From the NCBI GenBank assembly GCA_903884815.1, contig CAISGE010000070.1, positions 22,080-86,079 on the forward strand: a DNA stretch of 64,000 bases, in the 5' to 3' direction. The DNA comes from Candidatus Omnitrophota bacterium. GTDB taxonomy: Bacteria > Omnitrophota > Omnitrophia > Omnitrophales > Aquincolibacteriaceae. Every line of letters starts with the position of its first letter. Position 1 is the first letter of the stretch. The translations under genes were made by a program, and so were the position numbers. The notes under the pieces were generated by a model, which saw only the letters and a list, made by a program, of their open reading frames with translations, was not told the DNA's origin and searched no databases. Of this stretch, positions 4,929-32,262 are shown one piece after another.

Positions 4929-5567
4929 ATGCTTCCGGAGGATAAAATCCAAAAGATGAATGCCGCCATGATCTTCCAACCTCTCCTTGCGGGTCTCTCG
5001 GTTGGTGCCTTCTGTCTCACTTACTGCTTCCCCTTCATGGGCGCGTTCTTCGGCGCCGAGCCGCGGGGCCTAAAAAAAGACTTCCGTGTGCTTCTGGAAT
5101 TCTTGTTGGGACGCCTTGCCGGCTATCTTTGCTTCGGACTGCTTGTGGGTTATCTTGGAGAAAGATTCGACCCCCGGTGGCTGCGCCTGGCCACCAACAT
5201 TTCATTCGTTGTTTTATCGCTCGCGCTTTTTCTCTACCTCCTCGGCCTGGTCCGTGAAATCCCTCTTTGCAAAACACCGCGCTGGCTTGAGGGCAAACAC
5301 CCGGCGCTTATGGGGTTCCTGATGGGGATCAACCTTTGCCCCCCGTTCCTCCTTTCTATCACCTATGTTTTTTCACGGCAGAGTCCGCTGTACGGGATGC
5401 TGTACTTCGCGATTTTCTTTCTCTCGAGCTCGGTTTATTTCTTGCCGCTCGTGTTCATCGGACTGGCTTCGCAGGCAAAAGCCTTCCGGAGCATGGCCCG
5501 CACAAGCGGCTTTCTCGTCGCCGGGATCTTTTTCATTTACGGGATCTATTCCCTGATACGGAGTTAG
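4929..5567 (+). CDS. Polytopic membrane protein (about 6 TM; TauE/SafE- or DsbD-like transporter fold), function unknown
   Basis: Hydropathy shows six hydrophobic helices. There is a CxxxC pair in TM1 (FCLTYCF). Assignment rests on ORF length and codon usage only. Confidence 0.55.
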   Translation: MLPEDKIQKMNAAMIFQPLLAGLSVGAFCLTYCFPFMGAFFGAEPRGLKKDFRVLLEFLLGRLAGYLCFGLLVGYLGERFDPRWLRLATNISFVVLSLALFLYLLGLVREIPLCKTPRWLEGKHPALMGFLMGINLCPPFLLSITYVFSRQSPLYGMLYFAIFFLSSSVYFLPLVFIGLASQAKAFRSMARTSGFLVAGIFFIYGIYSLIRS

Positions 5568-5577: not shown

Positions 5578-5883
5578 ATGTGGAAATGGTTTGCCTCAGT
5601 CGACCGTCATGCCCGGTGGATCCTCGCCCTGATCATGCTGCTTTTCATTATCACCGGCCTCGGGATCACCAAAGGCCTCATGGACACGCGGTTGGCTAAA
5701 GAGCTGCATGAGAATATCCTACCGATCCCGTTTTATATTCTGATCATCCTGCATATTTTCTACTCCCTGCCATCGCAACTGCTCCGGTGGAGAGTTTTCA
5801 GAAACGAGCGCACCGCGGAGGCCTATTCACTCCTGACGGCGGCGATCCTGCTCGTCCTCTTCTTCTGGCTGCACTTCCGATGA
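5578..5883 (+). CDS. Small 3-TM membrane protein, hypothetical
   Basis: RBS AGGAGA 8 nt upstream of the ATG. It has three hydrophobic helices. Its TGA overlaps ATGA-style with a possible start of the downstream radical SAM gene. Confidence 0.5.
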   Translation: MWKWFASVDRHARWILALIMLLFIITGLGITKGLMDTRLAKELHENILPIPFYILIILHIFYSLPSQLLRWRVFRNERTAEAYSLLTAAILLVLFFWLHFR

Positions 5884-7016
5884 ATTCCGACAACAGGAAT
5901 CCGCAGCCCCTAGCCTTCTTGCTCCTGTTCCTCCTCCTCGGGACATCGGTCTTTTTTATTTATACCCGTGAACGAGCCCTGCAGGCAGAGCGCACCGAAT
6001 CAGCCACCGCCCATGAAGCCCGGTATTATGAGCCGATACCCCACAGCAACATGCTCCAATGCTTTCTTTGCCCGACACGGTGCGTCCTTTCCTCGGGCCA
6101 GTGGGGCGCCTGCAAGGCGAGGAAGAATATCGGCGGGAAGCTTTATTCGATGGTCTACGGCAAGCTTCCGACCGTGCACGTCGACCCTATCGAGAAAAAA
6201 CCACTTTTCCACTTCCTCCCCGGGAGCCTGGCCTTTTCGATCTCCTCGACAGGGTGCAACATGCGCTGCCTTTTTTGCCAAAATGCCGATATTTCACAGT
6301 GTTTTCCGGGCGACATTCCCACGGAGAACTGGACTCCGGTAGAGGTTGTCAATCGGGCCCTCGCCTCCGGAGCGCAATCGATTGCCTTTACCTACAATGA
6401 ACCCGTGATCAACTATGAGTTCATGCTCGAGACCGCGAGGCTCGCAAAAGTCCGAGGACTCCGTACCGTCGTTATTTCAAATGGCTACATCGAGGATAAA
6501 CCGCTGCGGGAACTCTTGCCATACCTCGATGCCTACAAAGTGGATCTCAAGTCGTTCAGCCAGCATTTCTACAGGAAATACACGGGAGGGACTCTGGACG
6601 CCGTCCTAAAGAGCCTCAAGATCATCAAGGAAAGCGGCGTCTGGCTTGAAATCGTCACGCTCCTTGTCCCCGGAGAAAATGACAGCCCGCAAGAGATCCG
6701 CGCCATGGCTCAATGGATCCGTAAGAATCTCGGCGACAGCGTGCCGCTTCACTTCAGCCGGTTCTTCCCGCAGTACAAATTGCAGAACCTGCCGCCCACG
6801 CCGCCGGAGACGATCGTCAGGGCGCGACGGATCGCGATGGAAGAGGGCCTGAAATTCGTTTATACCGGCAACGTCGCTTATCCGGAAGGTGAGGCGACCT
6901 ATTGCCCCGACTCGAAGGAACAAGTGATCGTCCGCCAAGGTTATTTCATCCTCGCCAACCATTTGAAAAACGGAGCCTGCCCCGATGGAGAAAAAATCCC
7001 TGGTATCTGGAAATAG
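5880..7016 (+). CDS. AmmeMemoRadiSam system radical SAM enzyme (AmmeMemoSam_rS; PflA-like activase family)
   Basis: CFLCPTRCVLSSGQWGAC...GCNMRCLFCQN is the N-terminal Cys cluster plus CxxxCxxC core characteristic of this rSAM family. The start is ambiguous. ATG 5880 overlaps the upstream stop (ATGA) and would add an N-terminal hydrophobic segment (LAFLLLFLLLGTSVFFIY). ATG 6051 (MLQCFLCP) gives a canonical cytoplasmic enzyme of about 321 aa. Confidence 0.85.
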   Translation: MNSDNRNPQPLAFLLLFLLLGTSVFFIYTRERALQAERTESATAHEARYYEPIPHSNMLQCFLCPTRCVLSSGQWGACKARKNIGGKLYSMVYGKLPTVHVDPIEKKPLFHFLPGSLAFSISSTGCNMRCLFCQNADISQCFPGDIPTENWTPVEVVNRALASGAQSIAFTYNEPVINYEFMLETARLAKVRGLRTVVISNGYIEDKPLRELLPYLDAYKVDLKSFSQHFYRKYTGGTLDAVLKSLKIIKESGVWLEIVTLLVPGENDSPQEIRAMAQWIRKNLGDSVPLHFSRFFPQYKLQNLPPTPPETIVRARRIAMEEGLKFVYTGNVAYPEGEATYCPDSKEQVIVRQGYFILANHLKNGACPDGEKIPGIWK

Positions 7017-8598
7017 ACCTGAAATCTCAAATCTCAAATTTCAAATAGCGCTTCTGACCGCCATTCTTTCCCTGGCCTTCACACTCCCGTCCCCCGCGGT
7101 GAAAGCGGCGCCGGAGCCGTCCCGCGTCCGCAAGGCCGCCGTGGCCGGAGGCTTTTATCCGGGGACCCCCAAAGAACTCATCGATTTTGTAGACGCCATG
7201 CTCCGCCAGGCGAACCCGCCCAAGATCGAGGGCCCGATCCTCGCGATCATGGTCCCACACGCCGGATATATCTATTCTGGACCTGTCGCCGCTTATGCCT
7301 ACAAAGAACTTGAGGGCCGCGACATCCGCACCGTGATCCTGATCGGCAACAGTCACCGCCATTATTTTGACGGCATCGGGATCGATGCGAAGGGCGCCTT
7401 CGAAACACCGCTGGGTCTCGTCCCTATCGATGAGGCCTTTGCAGAGAAGCTCCTTGCCGCGGATCCCGCCATCGTCGACCGCCCCGATATTCATGAAGGC
7501 GACCATGTCCTGGAGGTGCAACTTCCCTTCCTCCAGCGCGTTCTGAAATATTTCAAGATCGTGCCTATTCTCTTCAGCGGTGATTCACCCGAACTCGCCC
7601 GGAAGCTCGCCGGAGCCCTTGCCCCACTTCTGGATGAAAAAACACTGGTCGTCGCAAGCACCGACATGTCTCATTATCCGCCGTATGCCGAGGCCGGAGC
7701 CGCCGACAAGAAAACGCTCGACGCCATTCTGACCGGAAAAATGGAGAACCTGGATACCGATCTGAAGTCTCTCGAAACTCAACATGTCCCGCAAGCCGAA
7801 ACCTTTCTCTGCAGCCCGAGCGGCGTCCGTGTCGCGATGCTCCTGTCGCAGAACTTGGGGAAACTTCAGCCCGTTCTTTTGAGATACGCCAATTCGGGAG
7901 ATTCCCCAGCCGGCGAGAAGGGCCGCGTGGTCGGGTACGGCGCGATCGCTTTCGTTGCCCAAACCAGTGCGACACCCGCAACGCCCTCGCCCGCCGCCGC
8001 GGAAAAAGATACGCCCCACCCCCAGAAGCCCGAGGAAGGCATCTTGAAGAAATCCGAGCAAGACGAGCTCCTCCGGATTGCACGCTCGACCGTGGAGAGT
8101 CTCATCAAAACCGGGAAAGTACCAGATATCTCTCCCTCTTCCCCGGCCCTTCAACAACCACTCGGAGCCTTCGTCACTCTTAAGGAACGCGGCCAACTTC
8201 GCGGATGCATCGGCCGGTTTGAACCCACAGAACCACTTTACAAGATCGTTCAACAAATGGCGGTCTCCGCGGCGACCGAGGATCCCCGGTTCAGGCCCGT
8301 GAGTCCCGGTGAGCTGGATAAACTCGAATATGAGATCTCCGTCCTGAGCCCTTTGAGAAAGATTCCTGATGCGAACGCGATCGTGCTTGGAAAACACGGC
8401 GTGACGGTCTCAAAAGGATTCCATCACGGTGTATTCCTCCCTCAGGTTGCGACCGAAACGGGATGGAATAAAGAAGAATTCCTCGACGAACTTTGCAGCC
8501 AGAAAGCCGGCCTTCCACGTGATTGCTGGAAGGATCCGGCGGTGGACCTACAGGTTTTTACAGCCGAGGTCTTTACGGAAGAGAAAAAGAAGAACTAA
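6985..8598 (+). CDS. Fused AmmeMemoRadiSam system protein B (Memo/MEMO1 family) and protein A (AMMECR1 domain), with an N-terminal Sec signal peptide or signal anchor
   Basis: Memo motifs AVAGGFYPG and MVPHAGYIYSG...H. After a Pro/Ala-rich linker comes the AMMECR1 motif GAFVTLKERGQLRGCIGRFEP. The N-terminus (IALLTAILSLAFTLPSPAVKA|AP) looks like a signal peptide. The 5' end overlaps the rSAM gene by 32 nt, and there is no alternative in-frame start. Confidence 0.85.
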   Translation: MEKKSLVSGNRPEISNLKFQIALLTAILSLAFTLPSPAVKAAPEPSRVRKAAVAGGFYPGTPKELIDFVDAMLRQANPPKIEGPILAIMVPHAGYIYSGPVAAYAYKELEGRDIRTVILIGNSHRHYFDGIGIDAKGAFETPLGLVPIDEAFAEKLLAADPAIVDRPDIHEGDHVLEVQLPFLQRVLKYFKIVPILFSGDSPELARKLAGALAPLLDEKTLVVASTDMSHYPPYAEAGAADKKTLDAILTGKMENLDTDLKSLETQHVPQAETFLCSPSGVRVAMLLSQNLGKLQPVLLRYANSGDSPAGEKGRVVGYGAIAFVAQTSATPATPSPAAAEKDTPHPQKPEEGILKKSEQDELLRIARSTVESLIKTGKVPDISPSSPALQQPLGAFVTLKERGQLRGCIGRFEPTEPLYKIVQQMAVSAATEDPRFRPVSPGELDKLEYEISVLSPLRKIPDANAIVLGKHGVTVSKGFHHGVFLPQVATETGWNKEEFLDELCSQKAGLPRDCWKDPAVDLQVFTAEVFTEEKKKN

Positions 8599-11825: not shown

Positions 11826-13016
11826 TCAGGCTTTCGCTTGAAGAGGTAGTGTAAAAATAAACTTCGATCCTTTACCGAGTTCCGACTCAATCCATATCTT
11901 GCCGCCGTGAAGGTCCACAATATCCTTGGCAATGGAAAGGCCAAGGCCCGTTCCTTCCGCTTTCTCCGTCAGAATGCGCTCGAACTTGTCGAAAAGCTTG
12001 CGCTGATTCTCCGGGCTAATTCCCCCTCCGGTATCCTCCACTTCCACGCGGGCCTCCCCTTCCACTGCAAGAAGCCGCAACACAACCTTACGGCCCTCGG
12101 GCGTGTATTTCAAGGCATTGCTCGTCAGATTCACCACCACCTGGGTCAAACGGTCTTCATCGGCAAGCACTGTCACCGGTTCGGCTGGGATCTCAAGACC
12201 AAACTGGATATTCTTTTTTACCGCCTCCTCCACAAAAGATTCGCGCGTGCCTTTCAGGACGCTCCCGAGATCCACCGTTCCGAGCTCGAGCTTCATTTTC
12301 CCGGCCGCGATCTTGGAAACATCCAGAATATCCTTGATCAAGCGTAGGAGGCGTTTGATGGTTCGAAGCATGATCTCGATCGTCTCCGTTTGCTTCGTCG
12401 TCACGGGCCCGTAAAAACCATCCTGCAGGTTGTCAGCAAACCCTTTCATGATCGCAAGCGGTGATTTGAGTTCGTGGGACACATTGGCCACGAAAGCATC
12501 TTTCTTCTCATCCAGTTCTTTCAGGCGCGTCACATCGAGATAAAGCTGGCGGTCCAAAAGCTGGGACAGTGCAAGAACGATCTCGGTCTCGCTCATAGCT
12601 TTCGGCGCATTGACCGCGGGAGCACTTTCGCGAGCCGGCGTTTTCTTAAGATACATCTCCACCGCAGAGATCAGCGCGGCGCCTTCATCCTTGCCGTAGA
12701 AACCATCCGCACCGGTCTGAAAGCTCCATTTCTGGGGATCCTGGACCACGCCTACGGCATCGCGGGCCGTCATCATAACGATTGGAATGTCCTTCGTGGC
12801 AGGATGATCTTTGAGGAGTCGGCAGACTTGATAACCGTTGATCTTGGGCATATGAACATCGAGAAGGATGAGGTCGGGAATGCGGGAAAATACGGTATTG
12901 ATCGCTTCGATCCCATCCACGGCGGTCAAAACCTCATAACCGCCGTCCTCAAGCTGCACTTTGTACATCTCTCGCACAAGAGAACTATCATCCACCACGA
13001 GAATAATTTTTTTCAC
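11826..13016 (-). CDS. Hybrid sensor histidine kinase with an N-terminal receiver domain (REC-HisKA-HATPase_c)
   Basis: REC: [18 protein letters not shown]...[13 protein letters not shown]. HisKA H-box: [15 protein letters not shown]. HATPase: G-boxes ([19 protein letters not shown]). Confidence 0.85.
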
Positions 13017-13035: not shown

Positions 13036-14040
13036 TCAGCGTACGGACCGGTTTATTTCATCCGCCATAGAATCAAGAGACAGCACGCAGGCGATCGCGC
13101 CTTGATCCACCGCCACTTTATTCATCCCGTAGATCGCGGAGGTCTTCTCATCCTGCGCGATCGTGTGGCCCCCCGCCGCTCGAATAGCTGCAATCCCCTC
13201 CACACCGTCCCGTCCCATACCGGTCATGATCACACCCACCGCCCTGTCCTTATAAATCTCTGCCGCTGAGAGCATCATCACGTCGATCGAGGGAACATGA
13301 AGCATTTTCCGGGACCCATCTTCCTTAAGAACGATCTTCTCTTCCTCATTGACGGTCATATGAACCCCATCCGGCGCAAAATAAACGGTTCCGCTTTTAA
13401 GTGGATCGCCCGCTTTAGCTACCCGGAGACTGAGCGCCGAGGTTAAACTCAACCACTCCACAAGCCCTTGAATGAACCCTGTGGAAATATGCTGGACAAT
13501 AAGAACGCATGCCGGAAGATCGGCGGGCAGTTTTGCGAGAAGGGCTTGCAGCGCCTGAGGCCCCCCTGTTGATACACCCAGGGCCACCACCCGCGTGGCA
13601 GCTTCTCTGTTCGTGACAAGCCTCTTCACTACCGGGCGGATATGCATCCTCCGGAGAGCTTTCACCCGGGAAGCGATCTTCACCTTCAACAGTACTTCCC
13701 CCTTGATCTCATCGAGGTCCCCGGTACTTGCCACAAAATCCATGGCTCCAAAGCTAAGCGCCTTGACGATGATCGGAACTTCCCGGCTGCTGACGATCAC
13801 GATCGGAGTCGGGCACTCTTCCATGATCAGCTCCGTCGCTTCCAATCCTCCCATCACCGGCATGGTTATATCCATGGTGACCACGTCCGGCCTCAAGGCT
13901 AACGTCTTTTCATAGCCTTCTTTCCCGTTGCGGGCCTCGCCAATCACTTCGATCTCAGGGTCCGCACTCAAAATGGTATTCAGCGCCTGGCGCACCAGCG
14001 TCGAATCATCAACAATCAAAACACGGATATTTTTCGGCAT
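13036..14040 (-). CDS. cheB: Chemotaxis response regulator protein-glutamate methylesterase CheB
   Basis: REC domain ([14 protein letters not shown]...[11 protein letters not shown]) plus the CheB methylesterase catalytic domain ([31 protein letters not shown]). Start set at MPKNIRV with RBS AAGGGAA. Confidence 0.9.
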
Positions 14041-14101
14041 AATTCCCTTTATGTTGAAATTCAAAACGCATGCATTGAACTTTTATCTCTAACGCTGCGT
14101 T

Positions 14102-16255
14102 CTACCCCAGCAACCGCTCCATGGTCTCGAGAAGACCTTCGGAGGTGAAATCGCTTTTGAGAAGGTACGCGTTAGCGCCCGCCTCCATTCCCTTGCGTTT
14201 ATCTTCATCGCTTTCGCGGGTGGTCACGATAATGATCGGGACCTCTTTGTAATTCTTTTCCCGGCGCAAGCGCGTCACAAGTTCGAATCCATCCATCCGG
14301 GGCATCAAAACATCCGAGATGACGAGATCGAATTTTTCCTGCGCTGCCTTTTCAAGCGCCTCCTTGCCGTCCCGGGCGATCACCACCGCATAACCCACGG
14401 ATTCGAGAATATTCTTCTCCAGCATGGCGGTAGTCAGTGTGTCCTCAGCGAGCAGAATAGTTTTCTTCTTTTTTCCCGGAGCGGCTTTGGGCTTTGCGGT
14501 CGTCTGGCGAACCACGCCTCCTTCGGCCGAATGGATGATCGAAGGAATATCCAGGATCATAACGACCTTCCCACTCCCCAGGATCGTCGCACCCGCGATG
14601 TGCTTCACGTGCTTCAAAGGGTCGCCCATGCTCTTGGAGATGATCTCCTGACGCCCCATCAGCTCATCCACCAGGATCCCGATCCTTTTTTCGACCGACT
14701 GAACGATCAGTACCGGAAAGAATTTCTTCTCCAAGATCCCTTTCGCGGGAAGCCCAAAGACATCATGCAATTTGACGACCGGCAGGATATGCCCCCGCAC
14801 CGTGATCACATCCTTGGTCTCCACGGTCTTGAGATCCGCGAGATTGATCCGCACCGTTTCGATCACAGAGTCGACCGGGATTGCAAAGATATCACTGCCC
14901 GCCACCACCAGGAGACTTTCGGTGATCGCAAGCGTGAGCGGCAACCGTATGATAAAACTGGTTCCTCGAGCAGGATCGGAAGAAACCTCCACCATGCCCT
15001 TCAACTTGATCACAGTGTCGCGCACCACATCGAGCCCCACCCCGCGCCCGGAAATGTCGGAAACTTCTTCGCGCGTACTGAACCCTGGAGTGAAAAGCAG
15101 CTGAAAGATCTGTTCATCCACCATCGAGGAAATATGTTCCTGGGACACAAGATCCCTGGCCACAGCGATCTCCCGGACCTTGGCAACATCGATACCGCAT
15201 CCGTCATCGGTCACCGAAATGACCACCTGTGAACCTTCTTGGGTTGCCGAAAGCTTGATCCTGCCCGAGGCAGGCTTATTCTGCCTTTTTCTTTCTTCCG
15301 GAGATTCGATCCCGTGGTCCACGGAGTTCCTTAAAAGATGCATCAGGGGCACCTTCATTTCATCCAGGATCGCCTTATCAAGCTGGGTATCCTGACCTTC
15401 GATCACCAGATCAACCTGCTTTCTTTTTTGCTGCGCGAGATCTCTCATCGCCCTGGGAAAGGAGTTGAAAAGATAAGCGACCGGAAGCATGCGGACTTTC
15501 ATCATTTCATCCTGCATGTTCTCCGTCAGAAGATCGATGCGCTCCGTAACCGAGGTCAGATCCTTCATCACGCCACTGAAAACAGCGTAAGCCTCTCCTT
15601 GCGCCTCCGCTTTCACCAGAAGTTCCTTCGAAAGCTCTTCAAGGCGGATCTTGGAGATAAGCAGCTCGCCCGAAAGATTGATCAAACGATTAAGCTTCGC
15701 TATATCCACCCGGACGCTGTCCTCAACAGGTGCCGCAGGAGCAGAAGGAGCCTCGATGGTTTCGGCTTCAGAGATGCCTGAAGCCGGTTCCGGCTTAACC
15801 GAAGGCTCCGTAGCATCAGGAGCCGGGGCCACCGGAGACCGAGGGAGTTCCCCTTCAAATTTTCCGGAAAAAACCTTCTCTGCTAAGGCGCACAAATCCT
15901 CTGTAAGGTCACGGTTGATCCCGCTATCGTTCCAGGTCACTTTGTCTTGAAGCAGCGGCTCGACCACATCGAGACACTTGAATAACATTTCAAAGCAGGT
16001 TTTACTGAGAGAAAGTTCACCGTTTAGGGCCCGCTGGAGACCATCCTCCATTTTGTGAGTGATGTCGGCGATGCGCTTGTAGCCCATCATGGTGGCACCG
16101 CCCTTAATGCTATGGGCCTCGCGCATCATGGAATTCAAAAGTTCACGGTCCGAAGGGGATTTTTCGAGCTTCAACAGCCCCAGGCTGAGGGCCTGGACAC
16201 GTTCTCGTGTCTCGGTCTTGAACTGATCGATGAATTTCGATTTATCAAACGCCAT
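14102..16255 (-). CDS. cheA: Chemotaxis histidine kinase CheA fused to a C-terminal CheY-like receiver (CheA-CheY)
   Basis: Hpt domain with the phospho-His (REAHSIKGGATMMG), dimerisation domain, HATPase (HLLRNSVDHGIE...DDGCGID...GRGVGLDVV) and a CheW-like domain. The C-terminal REC is KTILLAEDTLTTAML...ISDVLMPRMDGFEL...KSDF. Confidence 0.9.
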   Translation of the reverse strand: MAFDKSKFIDQFKTETRERVQALSLGLLKLEKSPSDRELLNSMMREAHSIKGGATMMGYKRIADITHKMEDGLQRALNGELSLSKTCFEMLFKCLDVVEPLLQDKVTWNDSGINRDLTEDLCALAEKVFSGKFEGELPRSPVAPAPDATEPSVKPEPASGISEAETIEAPSAPAAPVEDSVRVDIAKLNRLINLSGELLISKIRLEELSKELLVKAEAQGEAYAVFSGVMKDLTSVTERIDLLTENMQDEMMKVRMLPVAYLFNSFPRAMRDLAQQKRKQVDLVIEGQDTQLDKAILDEMKVPLMHLLRNSVDHGIESPEERKRQNKPASGRIKLSATQEGSQVVISVTDDGCGIDVAKVREIAVARDLVSQEHISSMVDEQIFQLLFTPGFSTREEVSDISGRGVGLDVVRDTVIKLKGMVEVSSDPARGTSFIIRLPLTLAITESLLVVAGSDIFAIPVDSVIETVRINLADLKTVETKDVITVRGHILPVVKLHDVFGLPAKGILEKKFFPVLIVQSVEKRIGILVDELMGRQEIISKSMGDPLKHVKHIAGATILGSGKVVMILDIPSIIHSAEGGVVRQTTAKPKAAPGKKKKTILLAEDTLTTAMLEKNILESVGYAVVIARDGKEALEKAAQEKFDLVISDVLMPRMDGFELVTRLRREKNYKEVPIIIVTTRESDEDKRKGMEAGANAYLLKSDFTSEGLLETMERLLG

Positions 16256-16288: not shown

Positions 16289-17806
16289 TTACAATTCGAA
16301 ATTGGAAGCGAGTTGCTTCAACTCACCAGCCAAGGCTCTAAGTTGTGTCACTGAAACTTGAGACTGATGGGCACCCGCTGAAATCTGCTTCATGGCTTTG
16401 TCGATACCCATCATGGCATCCGAGATTTGCTTAAAGCCGGAGATCTGCTGGTTCGAGGACATCTGGATCTCCCTAGCCCTTTCCGTGGTCTGCTGCGCAA
16501 GCCCTGCCTCTTCATCCACGCTCAGGATGCTTTGTTCCATGGACATGATCGCGTTCGACATTTCGTGCTGGATCAGCTCGATCAGCGCCGTGATGTCTTT
16601 CGTGGATTTCGCCGTCGAATCAGAGAGCTTCCGGATCTCATCCGCCACCACGGTAAACCCGCGACCCTGTTCCCCGGCGCGCGCCGCCTCGATCGATGCG
16701 TTCACCGCTAAAAGGTTCGTCTGGTCGGCCACGTCATCGATAAGATCCGTGATCTTGCCAATCCGTTGGGATTTTTCACCAAGGGAATTCAGCATCCCGT
16801 TCGTCTTGTCGATGGCCTCTTTGATCTTCGTCATCCCGGCCAGCGCGTGAGCCGCGACCTGCGCGACCTTTTTGATGCTTTCTCCAACGGATTCAGAAGT
16901 CGTCGAGAGCTCCTTTGCCGCCGCCGCGGTCTCCGTAACCGCTGATGACTGCTGAAAGGCGGTGGAAGCCTGTTCCTGAGAAGCCGTAAGTATCTCCTGG
17001 CTTGAAATCGTCATTTGATGCGTGGCATCCTGGACTTTTTTGATAATGGTCCTCAACCCCGCTGTCATATCATTAAAACTTGCCGCCAGAGCGCCAATTT
17101 CGTCGTTCGATTCCACCTTTACTTCTTTTGTAAGATTTGCATTGGCGACCAGATTCACCACGGCAGCCAAGGAATCCAGGGGATTCACGATGAGCCTGTT
17201 AAGGAGAAGAAAAATAGCACCGATCACCGCCAACAGGATCAGAGCCTGCATCAATCCGGCCTTGATCAGATCCCGTCGCATCGCGTCAAGGCTCGGCTGA
17301 AAGACAACCGTCGTCCTCAAGAGCGCCATCACATCACCCACTTGAATGCCCGCGTGACAAGCCATACAGTCCTTCCCAGCGATCAGCGGTGAAATGATAC
17401 GAATGGCTGCACTCCCCCCCACACTTATTGTTTGGCGTATGGGTTGACCGGAATTAAGCGCCTGCAGGTCAAGGTCATCCTTCGTTGGGCTATTCTTGCG
17501 TTCGCCAAGTTCTTTTTCGAGCAACGGAGATCGAACCACGCGGATCTCAGCCACCGACTGAAGCTTGCTTCCCTTATCAAGATAGGCTTCGAGATCGCTT
17601 TGCTGACCGGTCCTCATGAATCCATAGACAGCTTCATGGATCGAATCGGATAAAACATTCGCTCCCTGGATCGCCTGGCGTTTTACGTTCTCATGCGAAG
17701 AGTAAAAGAGCCAACCCATCATCAAAACGCCCCCCAGGAAAAGAATCCCAAATAGCGCGATCATGAACTTGGCGCGAATTCCCATCGCCCCTGCTTTTTT
17801 TGCCAT
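16289..17806 (-). CDS. Methyl-accepting chemotaxis protein with a periplasmic sensor domain carrying a CxxCH heme-c binding motif
   Basis: TM1 (aa 15-35), a periplasmic domain of about 140 aa containing GKDCMACHAG, TM2, HAMP, and the MCP signalling domain (LAVNASIEAARAGEQGRGFTVVADEIRKL). Confidence 0.9.
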   Translation of the reverse strand: MAKKAGAMGIRAKFMIALFGILFLGGVLMMGWLFYSSHENVKRQAIQGANVLSDSIHEAVYGFMRTGQQSDLEAYLDKGSKLQSVAEIRVVRSPLLEKELGERKNSPTKDDLDLQALNSGQPIRQTISVGGSAAIRIISPLIAGKDCMACHAGIQVGDVMALLRTTVVFQPSLDAMRRDLIKAGLMQALILLAVIGAIFLLLNRLIVNPLDSLAAVVNLVANANLTKEVKVESNDEIGALAASFNDMTAGLRTIIKKVQDATHQMTISSQEILTASQEQASTAFQQSSAVTETAAAAKELSTTSESVGESIKKVAQVAAHALAGMTKIKEAIDKTNGMLNSLGEKSQRIGKITDLIDDVADQTNLLAVNASIEAARAGEQGRGFTVVADEIRKLSDSTAKSTKDITALIELIQHEMSNAIMSMEQSILSVDEEAGLAQQTTERAREIQMSSNQQISGFKQISDAMMGIDKAMKQISAGAHQSQVSVTQLRALAGELKQLASNFEL

Positions 17807-17827
17807 TTTGTTCCCGGATCTTTTCAG

Positions 17828-19369
17828 TTAGAGTTTAAATTTTGAGGCAAGCGCCTTGAGTTCTCCGGCCAGAGAGGTGAGCTGCTTGACGGAGACCTGG
17901 GACTGCTGCGCTCCGGCGGCCACCTGCTTCATGGTCTCGTCGATATTCATCATTGCGTCGGCGATCTGCTTGGCGCCCGAGATCTGCTGATGCGTGCTCA
18001 TCGCGATCTCTTTGGATTTTTCGGTTGTCTGCTGCGCAAGCCGGGATTCCTCTTCCACGCTCTGAATGCTGGTTTCCATGGACATGATGGCGTTCGACAT
18101 CTCATGCTGAATGAGCTCGATCAGCGCGGTAATATCCTTCGTGGACTTCGCCGTCGAGTCCGCGAGCTTGCGAATCTCATCGGCCACCACGGTGAATCCG
18201 CGGCCCTGTTCGCCGGCTCGCGCGGCTTCGATCGAAGCGTTTACAGCCAAAAGGTTCGTCTGATCCGCCACGTCATCGATCAGTTCGGTGATCTTTCCGA
18301 TCTTCTGAGACTTTTCGCCCAAAGAATTCAGCATCCCGTTCGTTTTGTCAATCGATTCCTTGATCTTCGACATCCCAGCGAGCGCATGGGCCGCGACCTG
18401 CGCGACCTTTTTGATGCTCTCGCCGACCGTTTCGGAAGTTGTCGAAAGTTCCTTCGCTGCTGCCGTCGTCTCGGTCACCGCAGAGGATTGCTCACGCGCT
18501 GCGGCGGCCTGCTCTTGCGACGCCGCGAGGATCTCCGTGCCGGCGGAAGTGATCTGGCCCGTCGCCTCCTGCAACTTTATGAGTATGATCCTCAGGCCCG
18601 AAACCATATCTGAAAAACTTTTGGCCAGATCCCCGATCTCATCATTCGATGTAGCTTTGATCTCCATCGTCAGATCTGCCGCGGCAAGAGCCTCTGTGGC
18701 TTTCATGAGCAACTTCAAAGGATTTGTGATAGAGCGGGTGATCAACCACGTTAGGACCATGCCCACCCCGAGCGTGAGCAAGGCGAACACGATCAAGACG
18801 GTCCCCAAACGATGGGCTTTAGCATCCTGTTCTTTGATCAGTTTCGCCGTGTGTTCGATGGCGGCCGCGCTGCTATCATCGATCAGCTTCAGGCACTCCG
18901 CGTCATCCCCCGTCGTATCAGCGTCTATCTGCACGACATTGGCACCGGCCGCCGTGACATAGCTTTTCAAAGATTCAAAGTAGCCCTCATTGAGCTTCTT
19001 GTAGGCCTCGTCGAATTTCGCCAGGCGCTGTTTATTCCCCTCACTCAGGAAACAGTACGGGCCATCGGTCAGTTCTTTGGCATCCTTCTGAACCCGCGCG
19101 ATCTGATCCTCAAATTTTGCTTTATAAATAGCCAATTTCTCAGGGTCTTTCCCCTTAAGCAGAAGGTTCTTCCACTCTTTCACCTGCGTCTTGAACTCCG
19201 CCTCCATATTCAGAACGAGGTTGAGCTGTCCAACGCGTTTTTCGGTGAACTCATGGTAATCTCCCACCGTCTGGAGAAAGATCACGACAGAAAAAATCGT
19301 CGCTGCGAACATTAACCCAAATACGCCCCCGAATCCAAACGTCAACTTCTTTCCGATCGTCACACGCAT
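17828..19369 (-). CDS. Methyl-accepting chemotaxis protein with a four-helix-bundle-type periplasmic sensor; tandem paralogue of the upstream MCP
   Basis: TM1, a helical periplasmic domain of about 160 aa, TM2, HAMP, and an MCP signalling domain about 90% identical at the protein level to the neighbouring MCP. Confidence 0.9.
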   Translation of the reverse strand: MRVTIGKKLTFGFGGVFGLMFAATIFSVVIFLQTVGDYHEFTEKRVGQLNLVLNMEAEFKTQVKEWKNLLLKGKDPEKLAIYKAKFEDQIARVQKDAKELTDGPYCFLSEGNKQRLAKFDEAYKKLNEGYFESLKSYVTAAGANVVQIDADTTGDDAECLKLIDDSSAAAIEHTAKLIKEQDAKAHRLGTVLIVFALLTLGVGMVLTWLITRSITNPLKLLMKATEALAAADLTMEIKATSNDEIGDLAKSFSDMVSGLRIILIKLQEATGQITSAGTEILAASQEQAAAAREQSSAVTETTAAAKELSTTSETVGESIKKVAQVAAHALAGMSKIKESIDKTNGMLNSLGEKSQKIGKITELIDDVADQTNLLAVNASIEAARAGEQGRGFTVVADEIRKLADSTAKSTKDITALIELIQHEMSNAIMSMETSIQSVEEESRLAQQTTEKSKEIAMSTHQQISGAKQIADAMMNIDETMKQVAAGAQQSQVSVKQLTSLAGELKALASKFKL

Positions 19370-19392
19370 GATGTCTCTCCTTGTTGTCCGGA

Positions 19393-19911
19393 TTAGGCTT
19401 TTCTTAAATTCCGCATTTCTTCACATTGCAGGACCTTTTCGAGGTCCAGATAGATCAAAATATCGTTGCCATGCGCCACTTGTCCTTTGGTGAAACCGGC
19501 AAGTTTTCCATGAAGGGTCGCGAGCGGTGCCTGGACCTCAGCTTCGTCGATCTCGAGGGTGTCTTGCACACGATCCACCCGGAGGCCAACCGCCTCGCCG
19601 CTCAGATCGGTCACTATGACACGGACTTCGTGGGACTTTCCCACAGGCTCCAGTCCGAAAAAATAATGCAGGTCGAGAATGCTGATGATCTCACCCCGGA
19701 GATTCGCGACGCCGATCACAAAAGAGGGGACATTCGGAACTCGGGTCGTCTCCGGCATTTTCATGACTTCCTTGGCCTGGCGGACATCGATGCAGTAATT
19801 CTCTTTACCGAGTGAAAAGACCAGCACCCGGTGAAACTTCTTATGGGTTACGTCCTCGTAAAGTGCATCCTCTTCGGGATCAATATAAATCTTGTCCTGA
19901 TCCCCGGTCAT
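19393..19911 (-). CDS. cheW: Chemotaxis coupling protein CheW
   Basis: CheW-like domain (FSLGKENYCIDVRQAKEVMKMPETTRVPNVPSFVIGVANLRGEIISILDL). Start trimmed to MTGDQDK (19911), overlapping the upstream cheW stop by 4 nt. Confidence 0.85.
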   Translation of the reverse strand: MTGDQDKIYIDPEEDALYEDVTHKKFHRVLVFSLGKENYCIDVRQAKEVMKMPETTRVPNVPSFVIGVANLRGEIISILDLHYFFGLEPVGKSHEVRVIVTDLSGEAVGLRVDRVQDTLEIDEAEVQAPLATLHGKLAGFTKGQVAHGNDILIYLDLEKVLQCEEMRNLRKA

Positions 19912-20375
19912 GGAGTGTCCTTTTTCTTGATCTCCACACGCTCGTGAACTTTTTGAAGCCCCTCGGACTCCTCGCCGCGCAAAAAGCCGGTGAGATCCAC
20001 CAGAAGCACGAGCTTTCCCTGCCACTTCGTCATCCCCATAAGATAGGCCGCGCTCTGGAGCAAGTCATCAGGTTTCGTGATGTCCTCTGGTTTGACCGTC
20101 ACCACGTCCCTCACCTGATCGACCAGGATGCCGGTCCAATGGTTCTGTATCGTGGTGACCACGATACGGTTCGAGGGAACTTCCTGGGATTTCATGCCAA
20201 GCTTTTTGCGGAGATTGATGAGGGGAATCACGCGGCCGCGAAGGCTGATCACGCCTTCGACAAAAGAGGCGGCCTCGGGCACAGGCGTCACTTTTCGTTT
20301 GCGGATGACTTCGCGGACCTGGGTAATATCCGCCCCGTAATCTTTTTCGCCGACCGAAAAAACGAGGATCTTCAT
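19908..20375 (-). CDS. cheW: Chemotaxis coupling protein CheW (second copy)
   Basis: MKILVFSVGEKDYGADITQVREVI...VISLRGRVIPLINL is a CheW domain. Confidence 0.85.
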   Translation of the reverse strand: MKILVFSVGEKDYGADITQVREVIRKRKVTPVPEAASFVEGVISLRGRVIPLINLRKKLGMKSQEVPSNRIVVTTIQNHWTGILVDQVRDVVTVKPEDITKPDDLLQSAAYLMGMTKWQGKLVLLVDLTGFLRGEESEGLQKVHERVEIKKKDTP

Positions 20376-21895
20376 CAGGACTCCAATTTCAAACGTTCCA
20401 GATTATCGCAGCAAACACTTTTTAGGGTGGCCAGGTTGAACCCGCTGCTTTGCAGGATCATCTGGCTTCTCGGACCGGGCGTTCCTTTGGCAAGCGCCGC
20501 CAGCGTGTTCCGGTACTCCCGGATAGCATCTCCCGTCCGTCCCTCGGTACGTAAGACCTGCGCCATATAAAAGCGGGCCATGACAAAATCCTTGTCGATA
20601 TAAAGCGCCCGGTTCAGATGCTCCTTGGACTCGGCGATCTTCCCCTCTTCAAGGTCCATGCAACCGAGAAGGTAATACGCCGGAGCAAAGAGCGAATCAA
20701 TCGCAAGGGCCTTCCTTAAACGGGCCTTCGCCTCTTCGTGGCGGTTCCGATTGGCACAAATATCCGCCGCCAGGTAGTGTATATCGGCCATCCGGGCCCC
20801 TTCTACAGAGACTTTTTCGATCAGGGCCAACGCCTTGCCATATTCCTTCAGATAGATGAAACGGAGGATCTGCTGACGCACCGACTCGAAATCTTCGGGC
20901 TTCAGCTCCACAGGGTCCTGCTGCTCAATGATAGACGTAAGAGCCGGAAGGGGTATCTCCTCTACGTATTCCTCGATCTCAGGCTCCGATTCCTTCGCCG
21001 TCCAGGACGGAAGGGACTTAGCTTCATCGGACTTACCGACGACTTTGCGGTAATAGATGCCGTCCTGCCAGCTGGCCATACGGAATTTATCTGTCAGGTA
21101 CTGCAGGCTCTCGGAATATCCGAGGAAAAGGTAGCCGGGATCGGTCATGGCCGCGGCGAAATCCTCCATAATCCTGATGGTCGTCTTTGTTTCAAAATAG
21201 ATCGTCACGTTGCGACAGAAGACGATATCTAAACAGGGAGGGTAAGGGTCCCCGACGAGATTCAGAAAACCAAAACGCACCATCCTCTTGATCTCTTCCG
21301 AGATCTTCCATTCTCCACTCTGTTTGGAACCGGCCACCTTTGTAAAATATTTACTGCGATACGGTTCTTCGACGAGGCGCATGGAGTTCTCGTTATAGAT
21401 GCCGCGTTTGGCCTTTTCCATGGCCTCGGAAGAAGCGTCCGTGGCAAGGATCTCAATATCCCAGTCCTCCGGATGAGGAATCGTTTTCATCAAGACCATC
21501 GCGATCGTGTAAGGTTCTTCCCCGGTAGAGCATCCCGCGCTCCAGATCCTGAGAAGCGGTTTTTTTCCATCCCGGCGTTCGAAAGTCTCGCCCATTTTCC
21601 GTTCGATCAGTTCCGGAAGCACTTTATCTTTGAGCGCCAGGAACTGCGGCTCATTACGGAAAAAATAGGTGTGATTGATGGTGAGAAGATTCAGGAGTTC
21701 GCGGAATTCACTTTCTTTCTCTTCGGAGGTCGTCAGATAAAGATAATAGGAGTGAACGGAATCAAAGCCCCGGGACATCATTCTCTGGCTCACTCCGGTC
21801 TCGAGATTGCGCAGGTCATGGTCCCGGAAGTAAAGACCGCAACGGTCGGCAATATGCGTCTTGATCTGATTGCGGAGGTCTTCCGGAAAGTTCAT
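20375..21895 (-). CDS. cheR: Chemotaxis protein methyltransferase CheR with C-terminal TPR repeats
   Basis: CheR N-terminal and SAM-binding domains (HTYFFRNEPQF...RIWSAGCSTGEEPYTIAMVL), followed by three or four TPR-like repeats (YLAADICANRNRHEEAKARLRKALAID...AYYLLGCMDLEEGK). Start set at MNFPEDLRNQ (21895), which avoids overlap with the upstream small gene. Confidence 0.85.
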   Translation of the reverse strand: MNFPEDLRNQIKTHIADRCGLYFRDHDLRNLETGVSQRMMSRGFDSVHSYYLYLTTSEEKESEFRELLNLLTINHTYFFRNEPQFLALKDKVLPELIERKMGETFERRDGKKPLLRIWSAGCSTGEEPYTIAMVLMKTIPHPEDWDIEILATDASSEAMEKAKRGIYNENSMRLVEEPYRSKYFTKVAGSKQSGEWKISEEIKRMVRFGFLNLVGDPYPPCLDIVFCRNVTIYFETKTTIRIMEDFAAAMTDPGYLFLGYSESLQYLTDKFRMASWQDGIYYRKVVGKSDEAKSLPSWTAKESEPEIEEYVEEIPLPALTSIIEQQDPVELKPEDFESVRQQILRFIYLKEYGKALALIEKVSVEGARMADIHYLAADICANRNRHEEAKARLRKALAIDSLFAPAYYLLGCMDLEEGKIAESKEHLNRALYIDKDFVMARFYMAQVLRTEGRTGDAIREYRNTLAALAKGTPGPRSQMILQSSGFNLATLKSVCCDNLERLKLES

Positions 21896-21927
21896 TCGGG
21901 GATGCGTTCTGTCTTGGTCATGAAAAT

Positions 21928-22257
21928 TCACTGCTTGGGGGCGTTGAAGGACTTGTTGAAATCTTGCAATTGTTGTTGAAACTGCTTCTGGATCTGCCGC
22001 GTCTTTTCCTGGAGCTGCCTGGCGAGCACATCCCATTGCTGCTGCAACGTCCTCAAAGTATCCTGGACTTCCGTTTCCACTTTCTTGGAGGTTTCGGTCA
22101 CCTTCATAGCTCCGGTCGAAAGGCTTTCGTCGGCCGTCCCCTTCAACTCCCGGGCGGCCTCACCCGCCTGAGAGCCCAGAGAACTCTGGTCATCGGCATA
22201 GAGTCCTCCTCCCAGGATTCCCATCGCAAGCATCAAGAGTGCCAGCATCCGCTTCAT
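21928..22257 (-). CDS. Small secreted coiled-coil protein (signal peptide plus Gln-rich helix), hypothetical. It is the first gene of the che operon
   Basis: MKRMLALLMLAMGILGGGLYA signal peptide followed by QQQWDVLARQLQEKTRQIQKQFQQQLQ. Its stop is 30 nt from the cheR start on the same strand. Confidence 0.5.
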   Translation of the reverse strand: MKRMLALLMLAMGILGGGLYADDQSSLGSQAGEAARELKGTADESLSTGAMKVTETSKKVETEVQDTLRTLQQQWDVLARQLQEKTRQIQKQFQQQLQDFNKSFNAPKQ

Positions 22258-28274: not shown

Positions 28275-29681
28275 CTAAGCGCCGCTGCGGATCACTTGAA
28301 TGAAAGCATTCACCACATCGGAGCGGAATTGGGTACCACTTACACGATTCAATTCGACAATGGCGGCTTCCATCTTGACAGAGACTCGATAAGGGCGCGT
28401 CGAAGTCATGGCGTCATAGGCGTCCGCGATCCCCACGATCTGGGACGACAGATCGATCTCGTCCCCCTTGAGCCCATCGGGATATCCTTTCCCGTCGACG
28501 CGTTCATGATGGGAGCGGATCACCCGAAGCAGCTCTTCATCGAGCACCGACTTCAGGATTTTCTCGCCTGTCGCGGGATGATCCCGGAGGGCCTGCCATT
28601 CCGAGTCCTCCAATTTTTCTTTCTTGGTCAGAATACTTTCATGGATCATGAGCTTCCCGATATCGTGAAGTTCGGCGACGTAGCGGAGCAGTTCGGCCTT
28701 ATCCAACTCCATCCCGAGCTTTAAGGCTGTCTTGTAACTGAGTTCCGCCACGCGCGCGGAATGGCCCTGGGTGTAGGGATCTTTGGCTTCAAGGGCACGC
28801 ACAAGCGAATGAGTAACTTTAAAAAAATAATCCCGCAGGCGCTCGCGCGATTCTCTGAGCTTTCCCGCCATAATATTGAAGGAATGGGCAAGCTCCCCGA
28901 TCTCATCGCGGGAAGTAAGCTTCACCCGATAGTCCAGATTTCCCGCGCTTAATTGACGCGTTCCCTCCACAAGGCGTCGCACGGGCCCTGAAACGCTTTC
29001 CGAGATCAAAATCCCAAGAACGCAACAAATCAGGATCCCTATAAGAAATACCACCAACATGCGCCGCTTAAGTTCGTCCTGCATCCGGCCTATGTCGTCG
29101 GCCATGATATCCACACCCAGGATCGCCACCGTCTTTCCCGACCGATCCAGAATGGGCGCATACCCCGATAACGTCATCCCCCAAGCATCATGTTCCACGG
29201 CCCGATCCGAAGTGGCGGACATGAATCCCTGTATCATTTCAGGAAAAGCGCGCGCGTCGTATAGATCGCCGGGCCGCGCCGGTTTTCTTTTCCTGTAAGC
29301 CCGGCGCCCGCGGTCGGAGGAAGATTCGACATCGACCAGAAAACGAAGGGCCCCCTCGGTTTCAGTCTTCGAAAGGATGTAGATGTATTGGAGGGGCTCG
29401 TTCATATCAAGAATCTTAATAAGATGCCGGGCGACTTCCCGATACGCGGGGCTTTGAACTCCTCCCCTCTCCATCGGGATCTCCCGAAGATTCTCGGGAT
29501 TAACCGCTACAGCGGCCGTTCCGGCAATCACTTTGAGGAAATTGCGCAATTGCTCGAACTGGGTATTGAGTTCACCTTTGAGAGTGTAAAAATTATGCAA
29601 TCCCATGACCAAGACCATCGCAAGGATCAAAACGAGCGTCACCTTGGTCTTAAAACTGTAAAAAAACGCGTGCCGCATCAT
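28275..29681 (-). CDS. HD-GYP domain c-di-GMP phosphodiesterase with a periplasmic sensor domain and HAMP
   Basis: TM1, a periplasmic domain of about 170 aa, TM2, HAMP (LSAGNLDYRVKLTSRDEIGELAHSFNIMAGKL), and an HD-GYP domain (HSARVAELS...LHDIGKL...SHHERVDGKGYPDGL). First ATG at 29681 with RBS GAGGTG. Confidence 0.85.
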   Translation of the reverse strand: MMRHAFFYSFKTKVTLVLILAMVLVMGLHNFYTLKGELNTQFEQLRNFLKVIAGTAAVAVNPENLREIPMERGGVQSPAYREVARHLIKILDMNEPLQYIYILSKTETEGALRFLVDVESSSDRGRRAYRKRKPARPGDLYDARAFPEMIQGFMSATSDRAVEHDAWGMTLSGYAPILDRSGKTVAILGVDIMADDIGRMQDELKRRMLVVFLIGILICCVLGILISESVSGPVRRLVEGTRQLSAGNLDYRVKLTSRDEIGELAHSFNIMAGKLRESRERLRDYFFKVTHSLVRALEAKDPYTQGHSARVAELSYKTALKLGMELDKAELLRYVAELHDIGKLMIHESILTKKEKLEDSEWQALRDHPATGEKILKSVLDEELLRVIRSHHERVDGKGYPDGLKGDEIDLSSQIVGIADAYDAMTSTRPYRVSVKMEAAIVELNRVSGTQFRSDVVNAFIQVIRSGA

Positions 29682-29705
29682 CAACACCTCACGTGGAAGA
29701 AATCC

Positions 29706-31106: not shown

Positions 31107-31136
31107 TGGATATTCTCCTATTAAAGTGACCGGAAC

Positions 31137-32261: not shown

Positions 32262-32262
32262 G

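Follow-up and report, generated by a model that had tools for sequence, protein, structure and literature searches.

We found a chemoreceptor whose periplasmic part is probably a single-Cache sensor carrying one covalent c-type heme (the sCache_heme or GSU0582/GSU0935 family), with output to a CheA-REC hybrid kinase. The gene lies in a stretch of 64,000 nucleotides, which is called the window here. The heme-c sensor feature is real, but it belongs to an already described and widespread sensor family. This family, sCache_heme, was structurally characterised in 2008. Going by sequence and predicted fold, the sensor is a member of it (Pfam PF21563/PF11845), because CxxCH is conserved in relatives, a profile of these relatives reaches the Geobacter structures 3B42 and 3B47, and the AlphaFold model has a single-Cache fold. 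The receptor is a further environmental member, apparently of lake metagenome origin, of a family whose redox-active, gas-binding cofactor lies on the outer side of the cytoplasmic membrane. It represents no new mechanism class. Structures and spectroscopy are available for the family, as is a family-wide survey. The features of the receptor and its gene cluster are collected in Table 1.

Table 1. Coordinates of the heme-c chemoreceptor, its parts and the surrounding chemosensory genes, in window positions
Feature	Position	Strand	Basis or remark
Heme-c chemoreceptor gene (505 aa; alternative start 17785 gives 498 aa): TM1, sCache_heme sensor, TM2, HAMP, MCP signalling domain	16289..17806	-	ORF and Pfam
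TM1, about residues 14-36	17699..17767	-	Kyte-Doolittle window >1.6
Predicted single-Cache sensor domain in the periplasm, with heme insertion, residues 36-185	17252..17701	-	AF2, Foldseek, subfamily profile vs PDB
Met64 codon, candidate distal (sixth) heme ligand	17615..17617	-	Aligns with Met60 of GSU0935
CMACH: C147, C150, H151	17354..17368	-	Predicted thioether Cys and proximal His ligand of c-type heme
TM2, about residues 183-206	17189..17260	-	Kyte-Doolittle window >1.6
HAMP, residues 201-252	17051..17206	-	Pfam PF00672, E 5e-12
Cytoplasmic methyl-accepting/kinase-control domain, residues 253-505	16289..17050	-	PF00015; as long as that of E. coli Tar
Tandem paralogous MCP, 513 aa, unrelated and probably all-helical sensor	17828..19369	-	Identity to heme MCP, low-confidence model
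CheW, 172 aa as called	19393..19911	-	PF01584
CheW, 155 aa	19908..20375	-	PF01584, E 8e-37
CheR methyltransferase carrying TPR repeats at its C-terminus (506 aa in the public call, 553 aa as ORF)	20375..22036	-	PF01739 and TPR
CheA-REC hybrid kinase (Hpt, dimerisation, HATPase, CheW-like, receiver)	14102..16255	-	Pfam; NCBIfam CheA 1e-117, below curated cutoff
CheB methylesterase (REC and CheB_methylest)	13036..14064	-	Pfam, NCBIfam
REC-HisKA-HATPase kinase, probable output or relay of the cluster	11826..13016	-	Pfam; position conserved in L012

The first-pass annotation had placed a CxxCH motif in the periplasmic loop of this methyl-accepting chemotaxis protein (MCP). Translation bears this out, since the reverse complement of 17368..17354 reads TGT ATG GCT TGT CAC, or C-M-A-C-H, within IAGKDCMACHAGIQ. 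The loop, said to be about 140 aa long between two transmembrane helices, is ~146 aa by hydropathy. Its lack of further Cys residues extends to the whole protein, which has exactly two, both inside CMACH (residues 147-151). Two ATG codons are possible starts, at 17806 (505 aa) and at 17785 (498 aa), and both are among the public gene calls; therefore, residue numbers may shift by 7. An identical heme MCP gene is called on 12 public metagenome contigs.

CMACH is the sole C-x(2-4)-C-H among the window's 42 credible ORFs. With the window's own composition (C 0.98%, H 1.6%), the number of CxxCH motifs expected by chance is 2.3e-4 for the loop and 0.03 over all 18,888 residues of the window. Two short ORFs containing CxxCH, at 59051..59455 (+) and 63138..63374 (+), are antisense to real genes and were therefore dismissed. 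An unrelated CAHCK occurs in the ORF at 63034..63750. Rfam and tRNA scans of the window gave no matches.

Homologues keep the motif, and so the refuting condition named in the first-pass annotation, a lack of conserved CxxCH among them, does not hold. Word-indexed protein searches gave only 2-3 relatives, and an exhaustive HMMER search of 1.84 billion representatives was needed to reveal the family, which comprises 552 clusters at 50% identity in this branch alone. Among the best 150 of these 552 relatives, 143 have a heme motif at the same position, as CxxCH in 138 cases and as CxxxCH in 5. The other seven are five fragments that end before the motif and two sequences in which it is degenerate. 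An alignment of 144 sensor domains, the query included, reveals a conserved core consisting of M64 (74%, or 107 of the 144), G67 (96%), D110 (83%), R136 (83%), P140 (97%) and G157 (87%). In the relatives, the sensor is joined to MCP, histidine kinase, GGDEF and HD-GYP modules. The idea that heme-c sensors on chemoreceptors are rare is correct insofar as few have been studied experimentally. However, the family is large, as indicated by the 552 clusters of this branch and by a 2026 survey (Deshpande et al.) that reported >5,000-20,000 sequences and found the domain in >50% of the genomes of several phyla (PMC12889525).

Single-sequence comparisons of the sensor fall short of formal thresholds. 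The match to PF21563 (Mcp40H-20_sensor) has an E-value of 8.7e-6 but, at 26.4 bits, misses the gathering score of 27, and that to PF11845 is weak (E 0.044, 14.6 bits against 24.1). Direct phmmer against the PDB finds 3B42 at E 0.044, which is insignificant alone. It is therefore the profile and the fold that carry the claim of homology. A subfamily profile matches 3B42 (E 5e-15) and 3B47 (E 1.4e-13) along almost the entire domain and brings CxxCH and Met60 into register, and CMACH aligns with the CQSCH of both structures and with His144 of GSU0935. Among the relatives, PF21563 matches 48 of 83 and PF11845 matches 23 of 83. Thus, a sizeable branch of the sCache_heme family falls under current Pfam thresholds, and automatic annotation therefore yields an MCP with an "unknown sensor".

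A structure prediction had been suggested as a check for a heme-c sensor fold. The AF2 model of the sensor (pLDDT 93.3, pTM 0.84) has a single-Cache fold, and its elements run from a long helix through a helix, a strand, further helices and two strands to the short CxxCH helix, followed by a strand and the helix leading to TM2. In the model, the strands span residues 50-57, 88-94, 97-107 and 124-133, and the motif-bearing helix spans 110-114. By definition, sCache_heme domains have a short inserted helix between beta3 and beta4 that bears CXXCH (PMC12889525), and the model likewise has the motif on a short helix between the third and fourth strands. The best Foldseek matches are 3B42 (3.4e-6), the WalK sCache domain, 3B47 and Tll0287 (5B82), and CitA is also among the matches. 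The superposition on 5B82 has a TMq of 0.59 and an rmsd of 3.6 Å over 165 columns. Together, motif conservation, profile homology and predicted fold support the initial proposal of a c-type heme site in an MCP periplasmic sensor akin to those of Geobacter.

The rest of the receptor is that of a methyl-accepting chemotaxis protein, with HAMP (PF00672) and an MCP signalling domain (PF00015, residues 328-490, E 8e-38) that has the conserved hairpin tip. The sensor is predicted to be extracytoplasmic from the hydrophobic segments that flank it, the positive charges before TM1 and the HAMP domain after TM2; the N-terminus is placed inside because K/R residues precede TM1. Residues 188-505 match residues 198-515 of E. 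coli Tar and of citrate-transducer models. Given that the spans are equal, the length class is that of Tar, which we take to be the one named 36H. A regular expression for the classical methylation-site consensus finds no site in the heme MCP and one in the neighbouring MCP.

Geobacter sulfurreducens GSU0935 and GSU0582 (3B42, 3B47) share the layout of TM, one-CxxCH sensor of ~135-150 aa, TM, HAMP and MCP. Their sensors are homologous to the query and are its best structural match, and the proximal His and the position of the distal Met60 are common to both. However, structural alignments give only 17-20% sequence identity to the query sensor. The Geobacter proteins are of class 40H according to the Pfam family name, whereas the query's cytoplasmic domain has the length of Tar and does not fit 40H. 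The query gene also differs in lying inside a CheA-REC / CheR-TPR / REC-HK cluster. The Geobacter crystals contain a domain-swapped dimer, while our model is a monomer.

Within the sCache_heme family (DUF3365/Tll0287-like, PF11845; PMC12889525), with which the query is predicted to share the extracytoplasmic Cache fold and the CXXCH helix between beta3 and beta4, it belongs to "Cluster 2", whose members are fused to signalling outputs. The relative P0002 (46% sensor identity) consists of only sensor and HAMP, like the NO-binding Cache_heme-HAMP receptor of Pseudomonas azotoformans. In the P. azotoformans domain, the distal ligand is inferred to be more exchangeable (possibly water; PMC12889525), whereas the query has a conserved Met. 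Tll0287 of Thermosynechococcus has the same fold and a heme covalently bound via CxxCH. However, Tll0287 stands alone, has Cys/His ligation and has been proposed to play a redox role (PMC12889525), while the query lacks a third Cys and is fused to a chemoreceptor.

The comparison with Geobacter also suggests what is sensed. In 3B42, the counterpart of Met64 is chain residue 26; this is Met60, because His144 is chain residue 110. Met60 is the distal ligand in GSU0935 (PMC8396549). Given that Gly stands in place of Met64 in 21% of the aligned sensor domains of the family, a distal Met ligand is not universal in the family. In GSU0582 and GSU0935, the heme changes between a reduced low-spin His/Met form and an oxidised high-spin form, with Em values of -156 and -251 mV, and NO and CO bind reversibly (PMC8396549). 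A signalling-type sCache_heme domain bound NO with a slow off-rate and formed no stable O2 complex (PMC12889525). By analogy, redox state or nitric oxide is most likely what this chemoreceptor senses; the physiological signals of Geobacter-type sensors may be redox potential, NO, CO or, indirectly, O2.

On the Geobacter model, the heme would be linked after Sec export by thioether bonds to C147 and C150, with H151 as the proximal ligand. Met64, which lies in the N-terminal helical segment (the first predicted helix, before the loop to the second), would be the sixth ligand of the ferrous iron, and would be released when the heme is oxidised or binds NO or CO. The change in ligation and spin state could then shift the N-terminal helices that continue into the transmembrane segments, and HAMP would pass this shift to the kinase-control tip and so alter CheA-REC kinase activity. 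The neighbouring MCP, whose tip is almost identical, probably sits in the same receptor array and provides a second, non-heme input. CheR-TPR and CheB would supply adaptation, and the most likely target of the phosphoryl signal would be the REC-histidine kinase encoded alongside, not a flagellar motor.

Alternatively, the heme could be present, but serve in direct O2 sensing of the aerotaxis type or in a small cytochrome that trades electrons with a periplasmic partner, with no Met release in response to redox state or NO. We consider this unlikely. The source contigs apparently come from lake metagenomes, going by their record names, and oxygen gradients would be relevant there. By its general description, DcrA of Desulfovibrio vulgaris, a methyl-accepting protein proposed to sense O2 or redox potential, has a periplasmic c-type heme like the one predicted here. 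Stand-alone sCache_heme members behave as redox proteins, but both these and the signalling-type proteins tested autoxidised and formed no stable O2 complex (PMC12889525). Moreover, like the Geobacter sensors, the query combines a complete TM-HAMP-MCP output with the conserved Met, which favours Met-release sensing of redox state or NO.

It is less probable still that no heme is attached and that the two Cys residues form a thiol-disulfide redox switch or bind a metal (Zn/Cu), even though CxxC does such jobs in other periplasmic proteins. Neither the window nor the ~9 kb that adjoin it at either end contain Ccm/Ccs maturation genes or other c-type cytochromes; the lack of maturation genes there would fit such a site. 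A DsbD_2 protein is encoded at 4929..5567, but is not specific evidence for cytochrome c maturation. We rejected the thiol and metal sites because the His that follows the second Cys matches the Cys pair in conservation (143/150), because five relatives have CxxxCH, a known heme-c motif, in its place, and because homology and fold match domains that were crystallised with covalent heme. That the CxxCH arose by chance in a Cache domain of the usual small-molecule-binding kind has a negligible probability, as only the formally sub-threshold Pfam score speaks for it, while the motif is expected 2.3e-4 times in the loop and is conserved across hundreds of divergent relatives.

The tandem neighbour of the heme MCP is 75% identical to it over the C-terminal 318 residues, which align without gaps, and the sensors have no similarity. 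The first-pass annotation described the two signalling domains as near-identical. This applies to the kinase-control tip (residues 308-427), where identity is 93-97%, but not to the 318 residues as a whole. Recent gene conversion between the two genes was rejected, since identity at third codon positions is only 50-63% even in the conserved tip. The neighbour's sensor, which the first-pass annotation described as a helical bundle, has no Pfam or PDB match. A single-sequence model has four helices at a pLDDT of 46, a low-confidence result that makes a bundle plausible.

The surrounding genes resemble the Wsp system of Pseudomonas (WspA-F and WspR), which has an MCP, two CheW proteins, a CheR with TPR, a CheA-REC hybrid and CheB. 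The query cluster has the same parts list (CheA-REC, CheR-TPR, two CheW, CheB and receptor); no CheY, CheZ or flagellar genes are adjacent to it. However, the Wsp output is the REC-GGDEF protein WspR, while the gene after CheB in the query cluster encodes REC-HisKA-HATPase and is not a WspR. Wsp also has one receptor with a surface or envelope-stress input, whereas the query cluster has two receptors, a heme-c sensor input and a different gene order. The CheB protein scores 327.7 bits against a cutoff of 342 with the NCBIfam subfamily model NF009206, and 320.5 against 293 with NF001965. The operon and the shared tip support the earlier suggestion that the two MCPs feed the same pathway. However, chemotaxis in the sense of motility is not established, because the cluster looks Wsp-type with a REC-histidine-kinase output, and it may not control motility.

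It is possible, though on the doubtful side, that the divergent heme-c Cache branch of this receptor is the dedicated, conserved input of a Wsp-like, non-motility phosphorelay. In such a relay, the heme MCP would signal to CheA-REC, then to the REC-histidine kinase and on to regulators, so that periplasmic redox state or NO would set a cellular programme (c-di-GMP, pili or gene expression), and accessory receptors would be swapped between lineages. The branch has about 24 clusters at E<1e-30, mostly missed by standard Pfam thresholds. If the proposal is correct, this would be an "alternative cellular function" chemosensory pathway with a defined heme-c redox input; we found no such pathway described. 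The conserved association with a CheA-REC / REC-kinase cluster yields a concrete hypothesis, open to testing, as to what these receptors regulate. The same operon order with a heme MCP occurs in L012 (71% sensor identity) and in the P0003 contig (66%), and L017, which is more distantly related (P0019, matching the profile at E 4e-39), has the same parts in a different order. The heme MCP is directly upstream of CheA-REC in all four loci, that is, the query, L012, P0003 and L017. The partner receptors differ, with a dCache receptor in L012 and several MCPs in L017. In L017, a longer REC-HK (546 aa) follows CheR-TPR, and a GGDEF protein is encoded two genes further on.

Positions 17368..17354 of the reverse strand read TGT ATG GCT TGT CAC and encode C-M-A-C-H, inside ...SPLIAGKDCMACHAGIQVGD..., in a chemoreceptor (MCP) that we call the heme MCP. 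A second in-frame ATG at 17785, 7 codons downstream, yields a 498-aa form used in some public gene calls; residue numbers here follow the 505-aa form. The protein has two cysteines, both within CMACH. In the other credible ORFs of the window, C-x(2-4)-C-H does not occur; an unrelated CAHCK is found in the ORF at 63034..63750. Given the window's own amino-acid composition, 2.3e-4 CxxCH motifs would be expected by chance in the loop, and 0.03 across all 18,888 residues. Hydropathy analysis detects hydrophobic segments at about residues 14-36 and 183-206. Because the first is preceded by Lys/Arg and the second is followed by HAMP (201-252) and MCP signalling (328-490) domains in Pfam, the motif-bearing stretch of ~146 residues is predicted to be periplasmic. 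The periplasm is where c-type heme attachment takes place. The first-pass annotation had described a CxxCH in the periplasmic loop of an MCP with no other cysteine there, and sequence, cysteine count, hydropathy and Pfam confirm every detail.

The sensor's match to PF21563 (Mcp40H-20_sensor) lies just under threshold (26.4 versus 27 bits, E 8.7e-6), and that to PF11845 (Tll0287-like) is weak. Compared directly with PDB sequences, its top two matches are the heme-c domains of Geobacter sulfurreducens, with CxxCH in register and non-significant E-values (3B42, 0.044; 3B47, 0.56). Since word-indexed protein searches yielded almost no relatives, a profile built from three sequences was used with HMMER to search 1.84 billion cluster representatives exhaustively. 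At E<=1e-3 it retrieved 552 clusters, of which 92 reach <=1e-10 and 24 reach <=1e-30. Among the best 150 of the 552, 138 have CxxCH at the equivalent site and five (P0036, P0097, P0106, P0109 and P0135) have CxxxCH, a known heme-c variant. Another five are fragments that stop before or inside the motif, and two (P0068, CQRYH; P0115, CMIHH) have lost the second cysteine. The motif is thus kept in homologues, as a heme site would require. One relative, P0094 (452 aa, six CxxCH), is a multiheme protein containing the heme-sensor domain.

When 144 sensor domains are aligned, query included, the best-conserved positions besides C147, C150 and H151 are P140 (97%), G67 (96%), G157 (87%), D110 (83%), R136 (83%) and M64. 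A profile built from 44 sequences of this set matches 3B42 (GSU0935; 5e-15) and 3B47 (GSU0582; 1.4e-13) over nearly the whole domain. The axial ligands of GSU0935 are proximal His144 and distal Met60 (PMC8396549). Given that His144 is chain residue 110 of 3B42, Met60 is chain residue 26, which aligns with M64 of the heme MCP. This position is Met in 74% of the 144 domains and mostly Gly in the remainder.

An AlphaFold2 model of the sensor, made with the family alignment, has a mean pLDDT of 93.3 and a pTM of 0.84. From the N-terminus, it runs through two helices (the first one long), a strand, two short helices, two more strands, a helix of five residues, the final strand and a helix that continues into TM2. 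The start of CMACH lies on the helix of five residues (model residues 110-114, protein residues 145-149). Structure prediction and a structural search had been proposed as a check for a heme-c sensor fold, and in a Foldseek search of the PDB the top match is 3B42 (E 3.4e-6), with a high rmsd, as expected from the domain-swapped dimer of the crystal form. Further matches are, in order, the single-Cache domain of WalK, 3B47, Tll0287 (5B82; TMq 0.59, rmsd 3.6 A) and CitA/DcuS-type sensors.

The closest known proteins are GSU0935 and GSU0582, which share the architecture, a homologous sensor and the positions of the proximal His and distal Met. They differ in that structure-based sensor identity is low (17-20%) and in the genomic setting. 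In length, the cytoplasmic domain corresponds to that of E. coli Tar (residues 188-505 versus model positions 198-515), not to the 40-heptad class in the Pfam name. A 2026 survey of the family of these Geobacter domains, sCache_heme, covers >5,000-20,000 sequences with CXXCH conserved in 99%; in Desulfobacterota, Nitrospirota and other phyla, over half of the genomes encode the domain (PMC12889525). The supposed rarity of heme-c chemoreceptor sensors is overstated: few members of the family have been studied, but many exist. The heme MCP, correctly read at first pass, adds one member to an already described family.

Outputs among 83 full-length relatives comprise 57 MCPs, 14 histidine kinases, 4 GGDEF proteins and 1 HD-GYP protein, indicating a modular input domain, as in the survey (PMC12889525). 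The branch holding the window protein, P0003, P0004 and others lies below Pfam gathering thresholds, so automatic annotation leaves the sensor nameless; P0003, 66% identical, matches neither PF21563 nor PF11845 at E<=1e-3. Another relative, P0002 (268 aa; loci L014 and L015; sensor identity 46%), is arranged as TM, heme sensor, TM and HAMP without an output domain, like the Cache_heme-HAMP receptor of a May 2026 preprint. It adjoins an alginate-export-like outer-membrane protein.

The heme MCP belongs to a co-directional che cluster, near which no CheY, CheZ or flagellar genes occur.

Genes of the che cluster containing the heme MCP
Product	Coordinates	Strand	Remark
CheR with C-terminal TPR repeats	20375..22036	-	
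CheW	19908..20375	-	
CheW	19393..19911	-	
Neighbour MCP	17828..19369	-	513 aa
Heme MCP	16289..17806	-	505 aa; contains CMACH
CheA fused to receiver domain (CheA-REC)	14102..16255	-	
CheB	13036..14064	-	
REC-HisKA-HATPase kinase	11826..13016	-	

A 4-nt overlap joins the two CheW genes, and CheR abuts CheW, consistent with translational coupling. The longest ORFs of one CheW (19393..20025; 210 aa) and of CheR (553 aa) exceed the public gene calls (172 and 506 aa).

The sensors of the two tandem MCPs show no similarity, and their last 318 residues align without gaps at 75% identity. A near-identical signalling domain, as first proposed, is thus accurate for the kinase-control tip (residues 308-427; 93-97%), but not for the whole 318 residues. 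In the tip, nucleotide identity is 80-86% and third-position identity 50-63%. These values indicate an old duplication under strong constraint and argue against a recent gene conversion. The neighbour's sensor matches nothing in Pfam or among PDB sequences, and a single-sequence prediction gives four long helices at pLDDT 46, so that the suggested helical bundle is a plausible but tentative reading.

The same operon occurs in relatives. Locus L012, from a MAG, has a heme sensor of 71% identity and a partner receptor with a dCache sensor. After its che cluster, 16919..20293 encodes four tandem single-domain (CheY-like) receivers and an MshE-type ATPase (MshEN and T2SSE), which hint at an output related to pili or c-di-GMP; in the window, this position is occupied by an MscS channel gene. 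On the P0003 contig (sensor identity 66%) gene order is identical, with a 119-aa 23S_rRNA_IVP-family gene inserted between CheA-REC and CheB in an otherwise conserved operon. In locus L017 (P0019; profile E 4e-39) these parts are present but rearranged: four MCPs, the heme MCP last and immediately upstream of CheA-REC, then CheB, CheW, CheR-TPR, REC-HK, REC and a PAS-GAF-GGDEF protein.

In the Geobacter sensors, oxidised heme is high-spin and reduced heme is low-spin His/Met, the Met is displaced reversibly by NO and CO, and midpoint potentials are -156 and -251 mV (PMC8396549). A signalling-type sCache_heme domain releases NO at a rate typical of NO sensors and does not form a stable complex with O2 (PMC12889525). 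From these properties we infer that C147 and C150 would be thioether-linked to heme with H151 and M64 as axial ligands, and that M64 would be released on oxidation or on NO or CO binding. M64 is predicted to sit on the N-terminal helical segment continuous with TM1, and its release would cause a displacement that TM2 and HAMP relay to the kinase-control tip. Because the tips of both MCPs are nearly identical and of equal length, they are expected to form one array together with CheA-REC and both CheW proteins, in which a signal from redox state or gas would be integrated with a second one from the neighbour MCP.

CheA-REC, CheR-TPR, the REC-histidine kinase after CheB and the lack of nearby CheY, CheZ and flagellar genes make the system more Wsp-like than flagellar. 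We take it to resemble the Wsp-type "alternative cellular function" systems, although the REC-GGDEF output that defines Wsp is absent from the window's cluster. A tentative and rather doubtful proposal is that the sub-threshold branch serves as the dedicated heme-c input to a conserved chemosensory phosphorelay unrelated to motility. The source records are metagenome assemblies, and their "BUCK21" prefix suggests that they may belong to the stratified-lake data set of Buck et al. 2021 (PMC8121793). The part of the 213-kb source scaffold that was covered, the window plus ~9 kb past each end, has neither Ccm/Ccs genes nor further c-type cytochromes. Although its Pfam description reads "cytochrome c biogenesis protein transmembrane region", a DsbD_2-family membrane protein (4929..5567, +) is too unspecific to count as evidence of heme-c maturation. 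Its gene has a B12-binding radical SAM gene on one side and, on the other, at 5787..8598 (+), a radical SAM gene followed by a fused Memo-AMMECR1 gene. The latter two represent the trio called AmmeMemoRadiSam, with two of its parts joined in one 537-aa protein.

Elsewhere in the window, 28275..36206 (-) encodes a HAMP-HD-GYP-type (HD_5) protein, whose ~230-aa N-terminal sensor has no family assignment, directly upstream of an OEP/ABC-2/fused ABC ATPase-permease/HlyD efflux set. At 45026..48249 (-), a dCache-HAMP histidine kinase gene overlaps the end of a Peripla_BP_5 solute-binding gene (E 1e-148) by ~65 nt, which suggests that the sensor kinase is coupled to the binding protein; after this pair comes a REC-HK (43342..44538). 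Finally, 52069..57408 (-) encodes a 1,779-aa protein of BACON_2 and Ig-like (HYDIN/CFAP65/Cep192-type) repeats, flanked by PMT_2 glycosyltransferases and small ORFs without a family match.
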